From sequence record DRR723986_5155: DNA of 64,000 nt. One strand, 5' to 3'. The notes beneath the pieces are model-generated. The model saw only the letters and a list, made by a program, of their open reading frames with translations, did not search any database and had not been told where the DNA came from. A program made the position numbers and the translations under genes. Numbering within the stretch: the stretch's first letter is position 1; the number at the start of each line of letters is the position of its first letter. Of the stretch, positions 7,524-58,689 are shown in pieces.

Positions 7524-8359
7524 AAGGTTCGGTGACAAGGCCGCTATGCAAGGTCGTTGCTCGCGTGCTTGATTTCATCACATCGAGGAGAAAACACGAA
7601 CCGATGAGAGACGACCAACGGAAGAGCGAACTACCGCAAAATCTTGATTCCTTGCACCGAGGAGAGGAGACCTTGCGGACGAAGGCAATGGGGGTCCTCA
7701 AGGAAAACGACAACCTCAAGGTCCATTTGGCTGTCGTGGAAGCCGCAATGGATATCGCCGACATTTTCAGGCAGTTCGAAACCGATGACGAAGACCTGAA
7801 GGTGCTCCAACTCATGGGAATGAGAACGTTCAACGCCTTCGGGGCGAGCTTGAAGCTGGCGTTGTCGGGATATCATCAGAACTCGGCCCTGATCTTGAGA
7901 GACGTGCTGGAGACGGTGTTTCTCGTAGATCTCTTCAGTCGCGACCATTCGTTGATCGAAGAGTGGAGGTTCGCGGACAAGAAGGCCATTAAGAGGAAAT
8001 TCTCTCCGTTCCAAGTCCGGGTCAAACTTGACGACCTGGACGGCTTCACTGAGAGAAAGCGTGCAGACCTGTATGAGCTATTTTCCGAGCTCGCCGGGCA
8101 TCCCACGATGAAATCCGCGTGGATGATGCGGCCGGACAAGAATGGCGACGCCGTTATTGGGCCATTCATGGAAGCAACTGCACTCGAAGCGGTCATCTCC
8201 GAAATGGGGCGCCTAGCAGTCCAGATTGGCGAAAAACTGATCACTTTCTTCCCACAGGACTGGGAAGCCGGGATTTATGCGCAAGCGGATTTCATCGAAA
8301 AGAAGCGGAAGTGGATTGAAACCTTTTTTCCGAATGCGGTTCGGCGAAAGCCTGCATGA
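7520..8359 (+). CDS. Hypothetical all-helical protein, DUF5677/HEPN-like (alternative start 7604)
   Basis: LILRDVLE and LYELFSELAGHP motifs. Confidence 0.65.
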   Translation: MKGSVTRPLCKVVARVLDFITSRRKHEPMRDDQRKSELPQNLDSLHRGEETLRTKAMGVLKENDNLKVHLAVVEAAMDIADIFRQFETDDEDLKVLQLMGMRTFNAFGASLKLALSGYHQNSALILRDVLETVFLVDLFSRDHSLIEEWRFADKKAIKRKFSPFQVRVKLDDLDGFTERKRADLYELFSELAGHPTMKSAWMMRPDKNGDAVIGPFMEATALEAVISEMGRLAVQIGEKLITFFPQDWEAGIYAQADFIEKKRKWIETFFPNAVRRKPA

Positions 8360-9168: not shown

Positions 9169-9193
9169 AACCTGTCGGAAATCCTGGCAGGTT
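9169..9193. repeat. Single copy of the 25-bp variable palindrome
   Basis: AACCTGTCGG AAATC CTGGCAGGTT; 22/25 identical to 13945-13969. Confidence 0.85.
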
Positions 9194-13616: not shown

Positions 13617-13907
13617 TGTAGTCTCCTAGTATCAATTGCAGCGACATATTTTACAATTAAAAGTTAAGTTGAAATGACTATGCTAACCCCGACTTTATGT
13701 ACCTCATATATTCCTTCATATCCGACGTTGTGTCCGCTGCCACGACGATCTCGCACCTGTAACAACGGTGACGACCTGATAGGAATTCTCCCTAGTTCGA
13801 TAAGACATCAAATAAGGAAGCCTGTGCCGCGTCTCTGGTCCCGCCTTCAAAAGGTCAAACGACTGCTTCCAGAGGTGTAAACAGCGATGAGAGGGGCGAC
13901 GTGATCC

Positions 13908-14233
13908 AACTATTCGAAATCTTCTCAATAGTTGCCCGACGTCGAACTTGTCGGAAATCCCGACAGGTTGCCAGATGTTCTCGCGCCGGGGAGATCGAGG
14001 CTGTCGCCATATACGAACCTATATGTGTGGAGGTAATATACGAGCGTATATAGGCTCCGCGAACTACCGAGGATTCCTCGGAGGTTGGACGAAGGGGCAA
14101 CTGTCCGGGAATTCCAGACGGTTAGACGGCGAGCAACTTCCAAGAAAACTTTGGAGGTTTGGTGTCGAGGACCAACGCGCAAGAAATCCTTGCAGGTTGA
14201 AGGACGGCAACTTGTGCAGAAAATGCACAGGTT
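13908..14233. repeat. Array of seven variable 25-bp palindromes (AAC-N7-N5-N7-GTT)
   Basis: Units start at 13908 (26 bp), 13945, 14062, 14099, 14135, 14174 and 14209; adjacent units are separated by 10-14 nt linkers. Confidence 0.9.
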
Positions 14234-14243
14234 CGATTTCGCC

Positions 14244-14276
14244 ATCAAAAAAGGCGGCCGGAGCCGCCTCTCTGAT
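14244..14276 (-). terminator. Intrinsic terminator-like hairpin closing the array
   Basis: AGGCGGC-cgga-GCCGCCT stem with a T-tract on the minus strand. Confidence 0.65.
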
Positions 14277-14697
14277 TTCGCGTTCGCCTGATTGAAACAG
14301 ACTTCCTAAACTTGGGTCAGCCAGATCCCTCTTGACAACGAAGTAAACAAACGCTGACAGCGCTTCCCATCCTATCGAAGCGTTCCGCCTCTTCGGACGC
14401 TGGATCCACGAGGCCCAGGATTGACATCCTTGTTCAGAGGCAAATCTCCAAAGCTTCGTAGAGCGCCTTCCATCGGTGTCGGCAGTCCTAACCGCTTGAT
14501 GATTTGGCCAAACCACTCCGTTCTGAGAACTGATTTTAGACGTTCCGGAATTCGATGGCGTAACCGTTTGTAGCTACACAGCACCCGTTCGGTAAGCTAG
14601 AGGTCTAAGGTTTCTGTCTTAGATACATTCTATCCGAACCGGAACGTCGGCATTCTTTGGTCTTGGTCAAACCCAATCCGCTATGTAGGCTTCCTGC

Positions 14698-15159
14698 TCA
14701 AGCCGACAGACTTTTGGTCGAACCGTGTGGAGCTCTGAAGCCGATCTGGACCCTATTCCAGAGATTGATCGCTCCGATCGCGAGCGACAGCCAAGCAATC
14801 TCAGATGGATTGAATGCTTCCTCAAGTACCGTCCAGTCTTCGTCAGGGGCGCCAGTTTTCTCAACGCGCGTCAACGCTTCAGTCCACGCGAGGGCCGCAC
14901 GTTCTCGAGCGGAATAGAGCGTGGAATCTCGCCAGCCCGCCAGAATATAAAGCCGTGCCGGGTCTTCGCCGTCTTTCAAGGCCTCGGACGTGTGGAGGTG
15001 GATGCAAAATGCACATCCATTGATCTGGGACGCCCGCAGCTTGACTAGGTGCAGCAGTTTCGCATCCAGTGGGCTATTCTTCAGTTGGGTCTCAAACTCG
15101 ATCAGTGGCTTGAAGCCTGGTTCGGCAAGCTTGAAATGATCTGTCATGCGTGGTGACAT
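14698..15159 (-). CDS. Carboxymuconolactone decarboxylase / AhpD-like protein
   Basis: LRASQINGCAFCIHLH. Confidence 0.92.
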   Translation of the reverse strand: MSPRMTDHFKLAEPGFKPLIEFETQLKNSPLDAKLLHLVKLRASQINGCAFCIHLHTSEALKDGEDPARLYILAGWRDSTLYSARERAALAWTEALTRVEKTGAPDEDWTVLEEAFNPSEIAWLSLAIGAINLWNRVQIGFRAPHGSTKSLSA

Positions 15160-21979: not shown

Positions 21980-22041
21980 GACAGTTAGGATGAATTCCGC
22001 TTCGATTGTCGGGAAAATACAGTCGTTTCAGCTTGTGCTTC

Positions 22042-22070
22042 ATAACGCGGACAAATATAGTCCGTGTTAT
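22042..22070. promoter_or_regulatory. Probable autoregulatory operator of the Rrf2 regulator
   Basis: ATAACGCGGAC-N7-GTCCGTGTTAT inverted repeat abutting the start codon. Confidence 0.7.
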
Positions 22071-22608
22071 GGCGCATTTAACGGTTGGTGTTGAATACGG
22101 GCTGCATTGCCTGCTTTGGCTGATGATTTGTGAGGGGACTCCGATGAGCAGTCGGGACCTGGCTCAATTGCAGGACGTGTCGCCCACTTTCGTCGCGAAG
22201 ATATTTCCGAAACTTGAAAAAGCAGGAATTGTTCGAGCGAAGGAAGGGGTGCGGGGTGGATACCAGCTCGCTACCGCACCTGAAGCTATCAGCATTCTGG
22301 CAGTTGTTGATGCGATCGAAGGTAAGAAGCCGCTCTTCGAATGTCGTGAAGTCAGAAATCAGTGCGCGTTGTTCGGCAATTACGCTCCTGATTGGGCAAC
22401 AAGGGGGGTCTGTGCCATTCACGCAGTGATGCTCCGTGCAGAAGAAGCAATGCGCCGTGAGCTTGCGCGTCAATCTCTTGCTGATTTGGCCGCGGTTCTC
22501 GCGCTAAAGATGCCGCCCGAATTCACCGACGACGTTCGAGAATGGCTTGATGAACGGGTCGCTGCAAAGGGAAAAAAGACGGCGAAAGATGATCCAGCAC
22601 TTTGCTAA
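22069..22608 (+). CDS. Rrf2-family transcriptional regulator
   Basis: VEYGLHCL, GVRGGYQLA, VVDAIEG, Cys-rich C-terminal part. Confidence 0.93.
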   Translation: MAHLTVGVEYGLHCLLWLMICEGTPMSSRDLAQLQDVSPTFVAKIFPKLEKAGIVRAKEGVRGGYQLATAPEAISILAVVDAIEGKKPLFECREVRNQCALFGNYAPDWATRGVCAIHAVMLRAEEAMRRELARQSLADLAAVLALKMPPEFTDDVREWLDERVAAKGKKTAKDDPALC

Positions 22609-50955: not shown

Positions 50956-50980
50956 AACGTGGAAGGAATTCCTCCACGTT
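50956..50980. repeat. Single copy of the 25-bp variable palindrome
   Basis: AACGTGGAAG GAATT CCTCCACGTT. Confidence 0.85.
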
Positions 50981-51288: not shown

Positions 51289-54200
51289 ATGACCGTTAGC
51301 GCTTCAACCCAGATTCCGAAGACATCAGATCCTTCTGTGTTTCAGCGGCAGTGCAAGGTGCTGTTTGAATGTGTACTCGGCGACCCTGGCGTACAGGAGT
51401 TTGGGTCGTCGGGTCAGGCGCAACACGGCATTGATATTCTCGGTAGGCGTAAATCGGTCGCACTCGATCACTGGGTCGGAATTCAATGCAAGCTAAAGGT
51501 CAAAGCCGAAAAGCTTCCCAAAATTACAGTCCGCGAGGAAGCTGAAAAAGCGCTAAAATTCGAACCGGCGCTGAAGGAGCTTATCATCGTTACAACAGCG
51601 TCCGATGACGCTGTGCTTCACAAGGAAGCGGCCGCATTTACCGATGAACAGGCTAAAGCTGGTAGGGATTTCCACGTCCAGGTTTGGGGTTGGGGCACCC
51701 TTGAAACTCATATATTGCAGTACGAAGCAGCGACCAACGCATTTTCACCGGATGCGTTTCCTCATCTTAAACGTCTCCAGCACGGTCAGGAAACCCTTTC
51801 AGAACAGGTCTTGACCGGTCACGCTGAAATCAAGGACGTGCTCAGCCGGATTGTGCATACGATGGTTCTTGCACATCCCCCGCCGCCGCCGGCGACCGAG
51901 TCTGACGGCTCAAGTCATGACACATGGCTCGACAAGCAGATTGACCAGTATCGAGATCTTATTGACGAAGGTAATTCCGCAGTCGCACTGAAAATGCTGG
52001 AAGCGCTGTGGGGTGAGCTATCCGATGACACGCCGGATCGTATTCGTTTCAGGGTCAGGGCGAACATTGCTGCATGCCGATTGCGATTTGGCGAGCAAGA
52101 AGAGGCGGGTGGTCTTTACCTGGAAGCATACGATTGGGCTCCTCAAGAACCAAAAGCCGCAGCTTTAAAGGTGCTAGGTTTGACGTTGCTCGGACGCCCG
52201 CAAGATGCCTATGATTTCGGGCTCTCGATGCTCGGAACAACAGCCGAAAAAAGTGCCCTCGTAGGCCATATGCTGATGGCGGCACGGGTCTTACCTGACC
52301 TAGAGGACGCCTTCGCGGTAATACCGGATGAAATTCAAGACGACGCTTTCATTGCCGTTGCGAAGGTTGACTATCTGCGGGCGCGCAACACACCCGAGAA
52401 ATGGCATGAACTCGCAATTAAAGCGCATGCCGATCACCCCGATGACAAGACCCTTGCTCGCTTTGCAGCCGAAGCGGCCATTGATGAGGGATGTCGGTGG
52501 TCGGACGAACACAGGCGAGGGCTCCTTCCTGTCGAGTTGGAAAAGAACGTTCGCGTAGCGATTGAAGCACTTTCGCCGCAGCTTGATGAGAACCTGAAAA
52601 AGCCGGATTCCGTCAGGTCGTTCGACGAGGCACTTTGCTCGAACCTTGCCACAGCATACCGGCTCTTGCGTGACCTGGATAAGGCAAGGGAAACGGTTCG
52701 AAGGGGACTTGCAATTGCACCTGACGACGAGGGGCTTCTGCAATATCTGGCAATGATTTCCCTCGAGGACGGAACCGCTGAAGAAGCCGCGAAATTGCTT
52801 GATCGGCTCCCGGATTCTCGGGATAAAGTTTTTGGCCAATTGCAGGTCTACGCAACTCGCGGAGCTTGGGGTGACATCCTCGCGTTGAGGGACGAAACGG
52901 AGATTTCTGAGTATTCAGAAGACGATCAAGCCTTTTTCGAGGCAATTGTGCTTCTGGCTCGGTTCCGGCTCGGCGAGGTTGCCGAGGCTAGTGCTGATGT
53001 CGATGCGCTGCTGGCGAAGTTTGGCGGTCAGCCCATTGTTCCCATTGTCTTGTACGAAATTGCCGCATCGCGGCAGGATACTGAATGGTCTGCTGCTCTT
53101 TATCTGGAGGCCAGAGAAAGGCAGGGGCATTTGAGCTTTGCGACACGGCTGATGCTCGCTCGTGTTGCGGAGTATGAAAACGATCCCGAGACCGTCATCG
53201 ATCTTCTGTACGGCCAGATCCCCGTCGGCCGAGATAGTGACGAGTTGCGGTGTTTGGCGCGGGCATTTGTCAACGCCCCACCACGTCAAGATGCAGTAGC
53301 CTTTGCCGAGCAGCTACCGGAGGAACTTAAGCACGAAGCCTTTTATGCCAGGGCGATAGGCAGCATCGACTTCAACCGCGGCGCGTTAGCGTGCGCAGAA
53401 GCGGCATTTAGAGAGGCGGTTGTGGCCGATCCTGCCGATGTGGTTGCCCACCTTGGCCTGATCAACACATTTCTGAGAATGGGCAGAAGGGATGAAGTTA
53501 CGGAGTATCTGCGTCCCCTGGATCTCTCTGCTCTCCAGGGGCCCGCTGAGCCGAAACTAGGGCTCGCTCAATTGCTGGTCCATTTCGGACGTGCTGAAGA
53601 TGGCCTTGCATACGGATACGATGTGGCGCAGCAAAACCGCAATAACGGCCGCGCCTGTCTGCTTTATGTTGGTCTAATTCTGCCGGAAACGACAGATCTG
53701 CGTATTCCCGAAATTGGCGAGGTGGTATCAGTCGATTGCTCGGTCGAGATCGAGCGTGGTGATGGGAATACGCGCAAAGTCACAATCGAAGCCGGTCCTG
53801 ATAGGCCTGACAGCGAACGCTATAATCCGGCGCATCCTTTCGCTCAGATTCTAATCGGGGCAAAGACCGGCGATATCGTCGTCTATAAGGCTGGGGGTGG
53901 TACACCGCAACGTTGGCGCATCCTTGGTTTCAAGCACAAGTACCTCGGTCTTCTTCACGACATCATGGAGACCTTTCCGGCACGATTTCCGGATATTGGA
54001 GGCTTATATGTTTTTGAATCGCCGAAAGGCGATGTCGAGCCGGTTCTGGAACAAGTCAAGTCAAGGTCCGAAACTGACGTCAGGATGTTCGACCTGCATG
54101 TAGCCGAGAGCTTCCCCCTTTGCTTGCTTGCGGCGCTGATGGGCCGTTCCACTATGGAGGTCGCGAGCCAGCTATCTTTGCGCAACGCATTAATTAAGAC

Positions 54201-55248
54201 ATGTGTCGGAACTCATGGTGAACGCGAGGCAGCTAGTGCGTTAATCGCCAGTGCGAAGGGAAAGGGTATCGTGCTCGATGCCTACACTGCTTGGTGCGTT
54301 TATTCGGCCGGTCATGTCACCACACTGAAGAAGATGTTCTCTCGTGTCGCGTTACCGCAGTCCGTCCTCGATCAGTTTCGTATCTGGCGCGAGAAATATG
54401 AAGGTCATGGCGATCGGTCGTTGATGACGGTTGGGTACAAGGATGGTGAGTTCTTTCGTGAGGAAGTTTCTCCTGAAGATCTGCGCAAGTCGGCCGAGGC
54501 AATTGATGAAGCGATCGAGACTCTCAACCGCGAGTGCGAGATCTTGCCGGCCGCTGCGCCTGCGTCGCCATCTCAGTTGGAGCGGGTCATAGTCGATGTT
54601 GCAGGCGCGGCGTGCCTGGACCCAGTCTATCTTGCCACCTCCGAAGATCTGTTGTTGCTCTCTGAGGACCTCCACTACCGCAACATCGCAAGGCAGCTTT
54701 ACCAGAGGGATGGGGTCTGGCTTCAGGCTGTCCTCTTGACCGCGATTGCTGACAGCGTGATTGACATGACTGTTTACTCCCGGTCGGTGGTCGATCTGTC
54801 TGCAAGGAAACACGATTACGTGACGGTGAATGCTACTGTTCTCAAGGCGATTTCTGAGCAGGATGATGACGAGAAGATGCCTTGGCTTTCGGCTACCCTT
54901 GCCTTCATCGGTAACAGTTCAGCAGATATCGCGTCACATTCAAAAGTCGGGTTAGATTTCCTCTTGCTAATTTGGCGAAGCGCCGGAATCTGCACTCTGC
55001 GCAAACAGCGGGCATGTGGCATGACCCTCGACCGGCTGACATCAATGTGGGCAAAGCAAGATAAGGTCGCGATCTTCTTGAATAAAATGATCTCCCAGAC
55101 CGGGCATCGTCCTCAATTGCAGAGCTATATCCGCGATTGGGCGCGCGGCCACTTCATCATTCTGGATCGGCCTGCGGCAGCAATTGAGCCACCCAAAAAG
55201 CCTAGCAGAAAGAAAAATCGGCAAAGCCGTTCAACGTTCAAACGGTGA
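51289..55248 (+). CDS. REase-TPR-GreA/B-C-PIN multidomain conflict protein
   Basis: N-terminal QHGIDI..GIQCK nuclease motif; helical repeats; HPFAQILIGAKTGDIV (GreA C-terminus-like); GIVLDAY..LLSED (PIN). Confidence 0.85.
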   Translation: MTVSASTQIPKTSDPSVFQRQCKVLFECVLGDPGVQEFGSSGQAQHGIDILGRRKSVALDHWVGIQCKLKVKAEKLPKITVREEAEKALKFEPALKELIIVTTASDDAVLHKEAAAFTDEQAKAGRDFHVQVWGWGTLETHILQYEAATNAFSPDAFPHLKRLQHGQETLSEQVLTGHAEIKDVLSRIVHTMVLAHPPPPPATESDGSSHDTWLDKQIDQYRDLIDEGNSAVALKMLEALWGELSDDTPDRIRFRVRANIAACRLRFGEQEEAGGLYLEAYDWAPQEPKAAALKVLGLTLLGRPQDAYDFGLSMLGTTAEKSALVGHMLMAARVLPDLEDAFAVIPDEIQDDAFIAVAKVDYLRARNTPEKWHELAIKAHADHPDDKTLARFAAEAAIDEGCRWSDEHRRGLLPVELEKNVRVAIEALSPQLDENLKKPDSVRSFDEALCSNLATAYRLLRDLDKARETVRRGLAIAPDDEGLLQYLAMISLEDGTAEEAAKLLDRLPDSRDKVFGQLQVYATRGAWGDILALRDETEISEYSEDDQAFFEAIVLLARFRLGEVAEASADVDALLAKFGGQPIVPIVLYEIAASRQDTEWSAALYLEARERQGHLSFATRLMLARVAEYENDPETVIDLLYGQIPVGRDSDELRCLARAFVNAPPRQDAVAFAEQLPEELKHEAFYARAIGSIDFNRGALACAEAAFREAVVADPADVVAHLGLINTFLRMGRRDEVTEYLRPLDLSALQGPAEPKLGLAQLLVHFGRAEDGLAYGYDVAQQNRNNGRACLLYVGLILPETTDLRIPEIGEVVSVDCSVEIERGDGNTRKVTIEAGPDRPDSERYNPAHPFAQILIGAKTGDIVVYKAGGGTPQRWRILGFKHKYLGLLHDIMETFPARFPDIGGLYVFESPKGDVEPVLEQVKSRSETDVRMFDLHVAESFPLCLLAALMGRSTMEVASQLSLRNALIKTCVGTHGEREAASALIASAKGKGIVLDAYTAWCVYSAGHVTTLKKMFSRVALPQSVLDQFRIWREKYEGHGDRSLMTVGYKDGEFFREEVSPEDLRKSAEAIDEAIETLNRECEILPAAAPASPSQLERVIVDVAGAACLDPVYLATSEDLLLLSEDLHYRNIARQLYQRDGVWLQAVLLTAIADSVIDMTVYSRSVVDLSARKHDYVTVNATVLKAISEQDDDEKMPWLSATLAFIGNSSADIASHSKVGLDFLLLIWRSAGICTLRKQRACGMTLDRLTSMWAKQDKVAIFLNKMISQTGHRPQLQSYIRDWARGHFIILDRPAAAIEPPKKPSRKKNRQSRSTFKR

Positions 55249-55416: not shown

Positions 55417-55516
55417 AACTTGGCGGTTTTCCAGCCGAGTTTAGGGTCGGCAACTCGTGCAAAATTTGCACAGGTTCGATACCGGCATCAAAGAGGGCCG
55501 ACGGAGCCCCCTTTGA
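55417..55516. repeat. Two-unit palindrome mini-array plus terminator-like hairpin
   Basis: Units at 55417 and 55452 with a 10-nt linker, then TCAAAGAGGGC..GCCCCCTTTGA. Confidence 0.85.
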
Positions 55517-57470: not shown

Positions 57471-57530
57471 AACCTGGCGGTTTCTCCGCCAAGTTCGATG
57501 ACGGCAACCTGGAAGGATCCTTTACAGGTT
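57471..57530. repeat. Two-unit palindrome mini-array
   Basis: AACCTGGCGG TTTCT CCGCCAAGTT, 10 nt, AACCTGGAAG GATCC TTTACAGGTT. Confidence 0.85.
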
Positions 57531-57573
57531 CGATTTCGCCCATTCCCGACCGGATGCCGATGAGGGGCAAACG

Positions 57574-58318
57574 ACGTCGGATTTCCGATGGACTTACGAT
57601 GGATTAACGCCCCGATGATCTCGAAAACCGAGGAAACGCCTGCGGTCGCGGCTGTTTCGGTTTCGATGGATTAACGTCGGATTTCCCTTGGATTAACGGG
57701 GTCGAGAGCCGTCCTTGATGTCAACAATATACGGCTGGGCCACGGATTTCGGGCGGTTGGGAGGCGCTATACGTGTTTCGCAGTTTCCGTATAGCTGGGG
57801 CGGCCGGAGATCGGCGGCTCATCTCATGCGACATCAAGCGAATTCCCCGGCGACGATCATCCTGGACGGCGGCGGATTCGATGTTTCGGTGGCGATGGAT
57901 TAACGCTGGATTTCCGATGGATTAACGGTTGGATTAACGTCGTGCATCCCTCGTAAGGCGAGGGTTCCCCTAGGTTTTTCGGCTTCTGTAGCTTGATGGA
58001 TTAACGTCGGATTGCCGATGGACTTTCTCCCGGAGAGCACGCCCTTCATGTCAACAATATACGGCTAAGCCACGGGTTTCGGGTGATTTCGCGGCTCCTG
58101 GTCGTAGCGGCCGGGCGGCGGCCAACGTCGAACCATTAGGAGATTCCGAATAGTTGCCCTCGACGGCGATGGATCCCTGTCGGATTTCCGATGGATAAAC
58201 GTCGAAATCGTTGACGCGATGAGGCAACGCCTTGGGTTTTCGATAGCGGTGGTTTGATGGATTAACGGTGGATCACCGTGATCGACGACGAAATCCCGTC
58301 CCCGATGTCAACAATATA
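57574..58318 (+). repeat. Iteron-like direct-repeat region
   Basis: TGGATTAACG core in 8 exact and several degenerate copies; 22-bp unit GATGGATTAACGTCGGATTTCC; ATGTCAACAATATA three times. Confidence 0.9.
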
Positions 58319-58689
58319 AGGCGGACGCACGCGTCGTTACGGGCGGCTCCGTCCGCCCGCCGGGTTTTCGGGCGCTCACGCTCGACGCCGAAACCCCAAA
58401 AACCGCAGAAGTCAGCGGTTTTCTGCTCCTTTGGAGCCATCTCAAGGTTGGAACCGACATCGATTGAAATCGCGGTAACTCCCGGAGGATGGGGAACCGT
58501 GGGTGCCCAACCGTCAACGAAAGAGCCAGATTTGAGGCCGCGCCTCCAACGGCACACCGACGCTTCGCTCTGGTGCACCGTTTCCGGCGAAGCTTCTAGG
58601 ATTTCGGACCCCCTGACGGGGGAATTGAAAGCGAAATCCATTCTTTGAAATCGACACATTCGGTCCGAGACCGGAATGGTGTTCTTGGA

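Follow-up and report, generated by a model that had tools for sequence, protein, structure and literature searches.

A row of free-standing palindromes resembling the in-frame palindrome of rhuM genes near the edge of a predicted defence island

Among the described systems closest to the locus reported here are the attC sites of integrons, imperfect palindromes of about 55 to 140 bp with an RYYYAAC/GTTRRRY R-box consensus and an internal unpaired stretch, which are located at the borders of single-gene cassettes that include many defence genes. Another one is parS inside parB/spo0J, a palindromic binding site within the gene of its own binder, of which more copies are found on the replicon. 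The locus itself, at positions 13945 to 14233 of a stretch of 64,000 nucleotides from sequence record DRR723986_5155 (the whole stretch is termed the window), is a row of six 25-bp palindromes with AAC and GTT ends. Palindromes of this layout were found in frame inside the genes of RhuM-family proteins (rhuM; Pfam family PF13310) and are termed RhuM boxes here.

The window units resemble attC sites in their conserved AAC and GTT ends, the middle that varies from site to site, the internal unpaired stretch and the position at cassette borders. They differ in being 25 bp long and in their flanks (GGCAAC and GTTCGAT or GTTGCC), which are off the RYYYAAC/GTTRRRY consensus, and membership in attC was rejected because of length and R-box consensus. 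A further difference is that the RhuM box is also present in frame inside a gene, where its half-site follows a helix of the encoded protein. No IntI-type integrase was identified; the PF00589 recombinase of the window is 13 kb off and was not examined for IntI-specific features. With parS, the RhuM box has in common that a predicted binding palindrome lies inside the coding sequence of the reader family and that further copies are found elsewhere. In contrast to parS, however, it appears to have a dozen or more specificities changing with the recognition helix, it encodes part of the predicted DNA-binding module (the first wing strand), and sites of different specificity are mixed in its arrays, which are also found where the gene is absent.

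Solitary CRISPR-repeat-like units on phages and plasmids act as RNA anti-CRISPRs on Cas proteins. These, too, are loose copies of a host-defence sequence element carried by mobile elements, and a decoy is the natural reading of the mixed box arrays found on viral contigs; the RhuM box differs in being a DNA site of a single-protein defence family, for which a decoy role is putative. Repetitive extragenic palindromes (REP) are present in many near-identical copies per genome, together with a Y1 HUH transposase (RAYT). Like the window units they are short, intergenic and often clustered, but the window units differ in every stem, and copies of the RhuM box are also found in frame in genes. REP/RAYT was rejected, since the two most similar window units are 3 of 25 positions apart (most unit pairs differ at 6 or more) and none of the 65 open reading frames (ORFs) of the window matched a Y1 transposase family. 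In type III toxin-antitoxin systems of the ToxI kind, near-identical direct repeats of about 34 to 37 nt are followed by a terminator and then by a ToxN/AbiQ-type toxin gene. The 35–39 nt spacing of the window array and the terminator-like hairpin after it are reminiscent of this arrangement, which was nevertheless rejected, since the unit sequences differ, Tandem Repeats Finder was negative and no ToxN/AbiQ-type family was matched in the window. Palindromes within protein-coding genes are known from Rickettsia as the Rickettsia palindromic elements, and mitochondrial genes of Nematomorpha reportedly contain palindromes inside coding sequence as well. Both have in common with the RhuM box that palindromic DNA is tolerated in coding sequence and that the symmetry is apparently maintained. 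Their palindromes are long and scattered over many genes that are unrelated, with no link to a DNA-binding helix, whereas the RhuM box is short and tied to a single codon position in a single family, and free copies of it are found on mobile DNA.

RhuM itself is described, in the passages dealing with it, as a predicted toxin-like partner of restriction and PrrC systems (PMC3710099), as often encoded in restriction operons (PMC3710099, PMC9881135) and as enriched beside inversion-targeted genes (PMC9881135). No published description of the RhuM-gene palindrome, of the helix/half-site code or of box arrays was found in the literature covered, which did not extend to supplements and subscription journals. 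New in this study are the correspondence between residues and bases, the higher density of free boxes close to gene ends, the arrays of mixed type on viral contigs and the rhuM-less array of six types at a predicted island border.

The palindrome of rhuM genes and the window units

RhuM loci (designated by L numbers) were drawn from species-representative genomes of three phylum samples, in which PF13310 was matched in 57 of 301 genomes (Pseudomonadota sample), 42 of 151 (the phylum sample of a Chitinophaga locus, Bacteroidota) and 22 of 151 (the phylum sample of an Apilactobacillus locus, Bacillota). All 102 RhuM genes examined contain a palindrome of 25–29 bp at one fixed codon. A variable, palindrome-encoded octapeptide in RhuM proteins had been described in an earlier note on the window, and two of the peptides given there, ATIRKFRIVQ (L452) and ATCKDFLQVR (L155), were found in these genes, as was STCAKFAQVQ (L466). 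In the Pseudomonadota sample, all 43 RhuM frames that could be delimited have 9 to 12 of 12 possible arm pairs at one site (12 pairs in 7 genes, 11 in 17, 10 in 11 and 9 in 8). Its centre always falls on the third position of the 39th codon downstream of the VWLTQ motif, with no difference in phase among the 43, and in 36 of them no 25-nt palindrome elsewhere in the gene is better. Of the 60 loci of the Bacteroidota and Bacillota samples, 59 had a frame spanning this region. Here, the fixed site is the best palindrome of the N-terminal region in 58 of the 59 genes (L431 has 9 of 12 pairs there), with 12 arm pairs in 24, 11 in 22, 10 in 11 and 9 in 2 genes.

The box is an odd palindrome of 25 nt, composed of A(A/G)(C/T) ends, two loosely paired positions, a 5-bp half-site and a 5-nt centre. 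It occurs in two main forms, AAC..GTT, encoding the peptide [AS]-T-x6-V-[RQ], and AGT..ACT, encoding [AS]-V-x6-T-[AG]. The match to PF13310 starts right at the box peptide, with profile position 1 aligned to fragment residue 60, and the in-gene box is located at the junction of an N-terminal winged-helix-like module (N-module) and the Pfam RhuM domain. One RhuM gene (L159, 1499–1987, minus strand) contains three in-frame boxes (SVVANFATTE, ATVAKFTTVQ and SVVAKFATTA), 4 and 8 codons apart, from which it follows that boxes can multiply inside a gene.

The six palindromes of the window were confirmed in the window letters at 13945–14233; their stems differ from each other and covary. All octapeptides that the earlier note quotes from them were reproduced, whether read forward or in reverse, and so were those of the copies at 50956, 55452 and 58131. 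Stretches of the form AAC-N19-GTT were counted 33 times in the window, compared to a mean of 13.6 and a maximum of 25 in 100 shuffles, and at least 8 of 12 Watson-Crick arm pairs are present in 15 of the 33 (mean 0.6 and maximum 4 in 200 shuffles). Thirteen of these 15 were accepted as units (starting at 9169, 13945, 14062, 14099, 14135, 14174, 14209, 50956, 55417, 55452, 57471, 57506 and 58131), and the palindromes at 22044 and 33553 were left out as doubtful. The former (22044–22068, 9 of 12 pairs) lies 38 nt into the longest open frame of an Rrf2-family gene (22006–22608) and has a core unlike every RhuM type; it is possibly the own operator of this regulator, or a chance occurrence.

Across the 13 units, 91.5% of the cells are paired, G-U counted, versus 71.4% in shuffles, none of which reached 91.5% (0 of 500). 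Changes on both sides were found in 7 of 10 pairs, and pairing dropped to 25–50% when the partners were slid by 1–3 columns. GCAAC directly precedes 6 of the 13 units and GTTCG or GTTCA directly follows 6 of them, in line with the 'A-T......V-R/Q' context that the earlier note had seen in several. Its observation that the linkers break the frame was also confirmed. The phases of the array units are 1, 1, 2, 2, 2 and 1, and the one open frame common to three units (14085–14291) has no similarity to RhuM in a profile built from 43 RhuM proteins. The array units are spaced 35–39 bp apart. Tandem Repeats Finder called no array at 13945–14233 because the unit sequences differ.

The pairing profile by distance from the centre is alike in the 43 genes and the 13 units, with high values at distances 3–7 and 10–12, lower values at 8–9 and 1–2 and background beyond 12. 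A strict box signature is passed by 6 window units; it detected 113 boxes in the 111 RhuM loci and one in shuffles. Extraction of the in-gene palindromes and their comparison with the units, as proposed in the earlier note, yielded the same set of types: 8 of the 13 window units are at most 3 mismatches (inner 19 nt) away from one of 101 gene palindromes, some of these in another phylum, compared to 0.5% of random palindromes of like composition (n = 2000). Judged by pairing profile and core types, the window units appear to be the same class of object as the in-gene palindromes of rhuM.

An in-frame palindrome of another kind was found in the YhcG/DUF1016 family (DUF1016_N, L501 to L530). It has AATT/GATT ends, encodes a peptide like IVQQ.VAQ.PW and, in about 19 of the 30 loci, outranks every other palindrome of the locus, 150–290 nt into the match. 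The window units were rejected as coding palindromes of this family, since the ends and cores of the DUF1016_N palindromes are others, which leaves the window units as of RhuM type.

Half-site, helix and predicted reader of the box

The half-site was defined as the 5 bp at distances 3–7 from the centre, and 101 genes were grouped by it. About a dozen half-site types recur, each in two or three of the phylum samples, and each is paired with its own motif in the eight residues before an invariant histidine. These residues are encoded 15–22 codons upstream of the box. Their identity is 0.63 in 232 cross-phylum pairs of genes with the same half-site versus 0.23 in 3072 pairs with different half-sites. 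For the rest of the N-module, the corresponding values are 0.51 and 0.48, and for the 120 residues after the box 0.20 and 0.19. The residue directly before the histidine tracks the last three bases of the half-site: glutamate is found with CGG in 22 of 24 cases, lysine with GCA (13) and TCC (7), arginine with GCA (7), leucine with AAG (16) and GAG (9), and tyrosine with CGA (8). Since the helix follows the box and the surrounding N-module does not, recognition is argued for, and the RhuM N-module most likely has the box as its cognate duplex site.

An AlphaFold2 model of the N-module (alignment of 43 sequences; predicted local distance difference test score, pLDDT, 84.5) comprises two helices and a beta-hairpin. 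The residues before the histidine are located in the second helix, and the box-encoded octapeptide forms the first strand of the hairpin (the wing). The best fold matches are DNA-binding domains of winged-helix or APSES type (Z 5.4–7.6), among them the N-domain of baculovirus Orf22 (Z 7.6) and Mbp1/APSES (Z 5.8), in addition to winged helices of ParA/Par/MerR/Xis (Z 4–6); all are below Z 8, a level also reached by unrelated models, and are suggestive only. Foldseek gave no match to the N-module model at an E value of 0.001 or better, a sequence search of the PDB with RhuM yielded weak matches to ribosomal S9 only, and a single-sequence AlphaFold2 model of the full RhuM protein (pLDDT 38) was unusable.

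In the proposed mechanism, the window units are free-standing copies of the RhuM box, the 25-bp palindromic DNA site of rhuM genes. The box would be read as duplex DNA by a predicted dimer of the N-terminal module, the helix ending in the invariant histidine contacting the half-site. The array would then present six sites of at least five different specificities without a rhuM gene beside it, and binding would be exerted by RhuM-type domains supplied in trans. On the basis of the covariation between helix and half-site, it is considered probable that the array is such a row of predicted RhuM-type binding sites and not a stock of gene parts.

Free boxes at gene ends, on viral contigs and in the window

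Free boxes are concentrated around rhuM genes. Within 150 nt outside of the RhuM frames, 8 were found in 33 kb (0.24 per kb), compared to 6 in 243 kb further out (0.02 per kb) and none in shuffles. A box identical to the in-gene one is located 6–7 nt after the stop codon in L130, and an identical box lies inside an N-module fragment after the gene in L444. Boxes of other types are found on both sides of the gene in L461, and the box 40 nt after the stop codon in L468 is one base off window unit 13945. The similarities of N-module and C-terminal part are almost uncoupled among RhuM proteins (r = 0.165); the box core correlates with both the N-module and the C-terminal part (partial r = 0.43 and 0.30, respectively; permutation p of about 0.0005).

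In the window, two pairs of units of the same type and orientation bracket genes. The units at 9169 and 13945 bracket the stretch from 9.2 to 13.9 kb (HEPN/Ymh, HIRAN and RES-Xre genes). The PDC-M06B and PDC-S32 genes are enclosed by the units at 55417 and 57471, which differ by 5 mismatches and each come first in a pair. The units at 14209 and 55452 (4 mismatches) are each followed by the same tail. On a contig from a pond metagenome, units 2 to 5 are kept at 87% identity, with the right arm of unit 3 restored at 14116, and are followed by the tail which in the window follows 55476. On a second pond-metagenome contig, a unit of the 58131 type precedes one of the 13945 type. The same units with other neighbours indicate that units were reshuffled between elements. 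As far as the sequence comparisons go, the RhuM box would thus also be a joint.

The 16-nt core of unit 2 was found at no fewer than 117 viral loci with at least 119 matches. Among the 119 matches listed, 27 have AAC..GTT ends, many others have AGC..GCT or AGT..ACT ends, and one is in a RhuM frame; a second palindrome, most often of the TCAAG type, lies at most 120 nt away in 26. The GTGCA-type box was detected at 20 loci on viral contigs, 7 times in RhuM frames and 13 times free. The window units are likewise free-standing and not in frame of any RhuM protein, as are 13 of the 20 GTGCA-type and 118 of the 119 unit-2-core viral matches among those listed. Mixed-type arrays are present on four viral contigs (L254, L482, L492 and L500), the last three with three or four types each. 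The neighbours of viral free boxes are integrase, terminase, portal, primase or methyltransferase genes, with varying orientation and context. Box pairs just upstream of gene starts were also found in L233 and L256, and a truncated rhuM-like remnant seems to follow the box in L489.

In the 301 genomes of the Pseudomonadota sample, the CCGAG core was found in 16, in 3 cases within RhuM genes; the other 13 matches have no AAC..GTT ends and look like chance occurrences in GC-rich coding DNA. Free boxes seem to be a feature of mobile DNA. A scan of genome contigs with a three-unit pattern resulted in at least 119 loci, almost all of them ordinary tandem repeats, and only L063 is comparable among those listed. 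In this metagenome-assembled genome (MAG) of Gemmatales, at least five different, mostly perfect palindromes with GGCAAC..GTTGCC ends are located at 7730–7990, 32–80 nt apart and downstream of a small Cys-rich ORF; PF13310 was not matched in this incomplete MAG. A scan of metagenome contigs with the array tail gave 117 loci and was regarded as noise: no box array precedes the tail at any of them, and an AAC-N19-GTT stretch (8 of 12 arm pairs) does so at one. BLAST of the island and of the array gave no match among plasmids and only unit-sized matches (E of 0.3 or more) among phages; BLAST of a viral array against phages gave two 28-nt matches.

The array of the window is about 13 kb away from a gene for a tyrosine recombinase (PF00589) at 157–1200. 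Positions 1–30 on the minus strand, adjoining this gene, resemble the T-arm of a tRNA gene truncated by the window edge; no complete tRNA was found in the window with ARAGORN. The recombinase gene is followed by candidate defence genes (SRAP, PDC-S31/DUF2971, a Ymh-type HEPN protein, a HIRAN protein and a RES-Xre pair) and then by the array at 13.9–14.3 kb. In contigs of three public runs, similarity to the window begins only at 14705 and extends rightwards, which indicates that a variable island ends at about 14.3–14.7 kb, with the array at its edge. The array would thus lie about 0.4–0.8 kb inside the border of a predicted integrase-bearing defence island. Between 15 and 50 kb, ordinary regulatory and metabolic genes are encoded, and no accepted unit is present. 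A second defence stretch at 50–58 kb comprises genes for a TPR-GreAB-C-PIN protein, PDC-M06B and the AbiJ-like PDC-S32, and the remaining units are located in its intergenic gaps. The gene at 51289–55248 encodes a 1319-aa protein with TPR repeats, a domain like the C-terminal one of GreA/GreB and the PIN domain of the TPR-GreAB-C-PIN system; boxes are found on both of its sides (50956 and 55417/55452). The 64-kb window contains no rhuM gene, as the earlier note had already stated, and no relic of one: none of the 65 ORFs of at least 90 aa matches PF13310, and the 43-protein RhuM profile found nothing in 1800 six-frame pieces of the window but the palindrome peptide itself (E = 5.8). All units and associated tails are compiled in Table 1.

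Table 1. Palindromic units and associated tails in the window; mismatches to RhuM-gene palindromes given for unit 1 refer to the inner 19 nt.
Feature	Position	Strand	Type	Remarks
Unit 1	13945..13969		half-site GTCGG type	1 mismatch to reverse complement of the L455 RhuM-gene palindrome
Unit 2	14062..14086		half-site CCGAG type	2 mismatches to the L143 RhuM palindrome, peptide there TTEDSSVV
Unit 3	14099..14123		TCCGG type, right arm worn	3 mismatches to L421
Unit 4	14135..14159		TCCAA half-site	nearest sampled RhuM palindrome 5 mismatches off
Unit 5	14174..14198		GCAAG type	3 mismatches to reverse complement of the L155 palindrome
Unit 6	14209..14233		GTGCA type	2 mismatches to L426; 4 to window unit 55452
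Tail after unit 6	14234..14285	+		conserved CGAT..CATCAAA, then terminator-like hairpin 14252–14269
Worn seventh unit and second tail copy	13773..13848	+		unit 13773–13797 resembles reverse complement of unit 2
Scattered unit	9169..9193		type of 13945	3 mismatches to it; GACGTCGAA flank in common
Scattered unit	50956..50980			upstream of TPR-GreAB-C-PIN gene, in a stretch without family-supported gene
Unit pair and tail	55417..55476		TGGCGG type, then GTGCA type	between the ends of the TPR-GreAB-C-PIN and PDC-M06B genes
Unit pair	57471..57530		TGGCGG type, then GGAAG/TAAAG hybrid	starts 16 nt upstream of the AbiJ-like PDC-S32 gene start
Scattered unit	58131..58155		TTAGG/TTCGG type	3 mismatches to L452

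Tails similar to that at 14234..14285 also follow 55476 and 13797. Two further kinds of repeats were observed next to the units. Between units 1 and 2 (14009–14051), two AT-rich palindromes of 16 nt, ATATACGAACCTATAT and ATATACGAGCGTATAT, are located 27 nt apart; they differ in kind from the boxes. Between the box pair at 57471–57530 and the box at 58131, three repeats of about 260–330 bp (57550–58330) consist of clusters of an 11-bp motif (TGGATTAACG-like, 11 bp spacing) followed by a conserved ATGTCAACAATATA(C/A)GGC stretch. No gene family was matched in these repeats, which look like an iteron or regulatory array, or like small RNA genes.

Competing explanations and significance

Two roles may be considered for a row of RhuM-type binding sites. 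The array may capture RhuM-type defence proteins of several specificities, as a docking array or a decoy, or its units may serve as landing pads or joints for the in-frame exchange of defence cassettes and RhuM modules. Both roles are ranked about equally and would be compatible if the bound protein promoted the exchange. The capture role is attractive because a RhuM-domain protein is reported as protective; according to the part of a preprint that deals with PDC-S05, this RhuM-domain protein reduced the plating of T7, T5 and T4 on E. coli B (10.1101/2024.09.26.614923). That phages and mobile islands in general carry mixed box arrays as DNA decoys soaking up RhuM, the window array being a broad-spectrum RhuM sponge, is a tentative and rather doubtful extension of this role.

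Several points weigh against predicted binding sites with these roles. No RhuM-type protein is encoded in the 64 kb of the window, 5 of the 13 window units are 5–8 mismatches away from any sampled gene palindrome, and the fold matches of the N-module are at the level described above. The evidence for joints comes from few cases: across 111 loci, 8 free boxes lie close to the ends of genes, and the window contributes 2 bracketing pairs. In the 301 Pseudomonadota genomes, neither a free array nor any free CCGAG-type box with AAC..GTT ends was found, so that such arrays are rare in chromosomes. The protection by PDC-S05 against T7, T5 and T4, phages without a known cognate box, argues against a need for boxes on the invader as a trigger. 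Finally, helix and box are about 60 nt apart, and their link could partly reflect co-inheritance as one block; the helix-specific contrast argues against such a block, although it falls short of excluding it.

The earlier note had offered two interpretations, a donor library that diversifies a rhuM-like gene in trans or a set of target or decoy sites. The latter stands up better, as it agrees with the box as a predicted protein-binding site. In the former, the units would be silent cassettes with which gene conversion overwrites the palindrome of a rhuM gene located elsewhere, so that its octapeptide changes. The units do match the type set of rhuM genes, and in-frame multiplication of boxes was seen in one gene (L159), but a donor library is nevertheless very improbable. 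There is no rhuM gene in the window, and the 60-nt flanks of the arrays resemble the coding flanks of 52 rhuM genes no better than shuffled sequence does, which leaves only about 5 nt of shared flank for copying. Moreover, viral contigs that lack rhuM carry the same boxes and arrays, and the covariation between the box and the helix upstream of it means that swapping the box alone would break the match. Silent donor cassettes of the pilS type were rejected on account of the lack of a rhuM gene in the 64 kb and the dissimilar flanks. Purely structure-defined, attC-like recombination sites that are used by a recombinase or by hairpin template switching and are not read by RhuM would make the array a row of cassette-less joints. 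The conserved AAC..GTT ends with a variable middle and an internal bubble, the boxes at gene ends and bracketing cassettes, the mosaic of units between related elements, and the location of viral-contig arrays near integrases or at module borders are consistent with this, as is the recombinase at 157–1200. It is unlikely all the same, because the half-site follows the helix of the adjacent N-module, which is needless for a purely structural site, and because the types are discrete and stable across phyla instead of drifting freely. Furthermore, the unit of 25 bp and its flanks are off the attC R-box consensus, and no crossover product was seen.

Decay could also leave palindromes behind. The units would then be the last pieces of decayed or replaced rhuM genes, their palindromes resisting decay or being re-perfected by template switching, without function now. 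Some units do have GCAAC and GTTCG flanks beside them that resemble Ala-Thr and Val-Arg codons, broken rhuM genes exist (L167, L169 and L170), and the box in L489 seems to be followed by a truncated rhuM-like remnant; single free boxes elsewhere may well be relics. For the array this is quite improbable. Six units of different types 35–39 bp apart leave no room for gene remnants, the flanks have no rhuM similarity (they are within the shuffle range) and no profile match, a relative retains four units at 87% identity, and mixed arrays recur on unrelated viral contigs. A transcribed array acting as RNA hairpins (small RNA, 5' leader, stabiliser or antitoxin-like repeat) would account for hairpin-compatible covariation around a 5-nt centre, for the terminator-like hairpin on the plus strand after the array and for box pairs just upstream of gene starts (57471/57506 in the window, L233, L256), but has very little to recommend it otherwise. 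The arm mismatches of in-gene boxes are without G-T bias (GT 17, AC 10, AG 16), and this lack of a G-U over A-C preference does not favour an RNA or single-strand hairpin. No Rfam family was found in the window and no sigma-70-like promoter was seen near the arrays, orientation and context of the boxes vary, and the helix/half-site code points to a protein that reads bases.

RhuM (PF13310; PDC-S05 in PADLOC) is widespread across the three phylum samples, and a palindrome kept inside the coding sequence of every RhuM gene examined, across phyla, is an unusual constraint on a protein. The code between eight residues and a 5-bp half-site provides a handle on RhuM recognition, together with natural specificity variants. 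If the boxes are joints, they would explain the in-frame shuffling of defence cassettes and RhuM modules. If the free arrays are decoys, they would represent a new counter-defence made of DNA sites alone, which is invisible to gene-based annotation.

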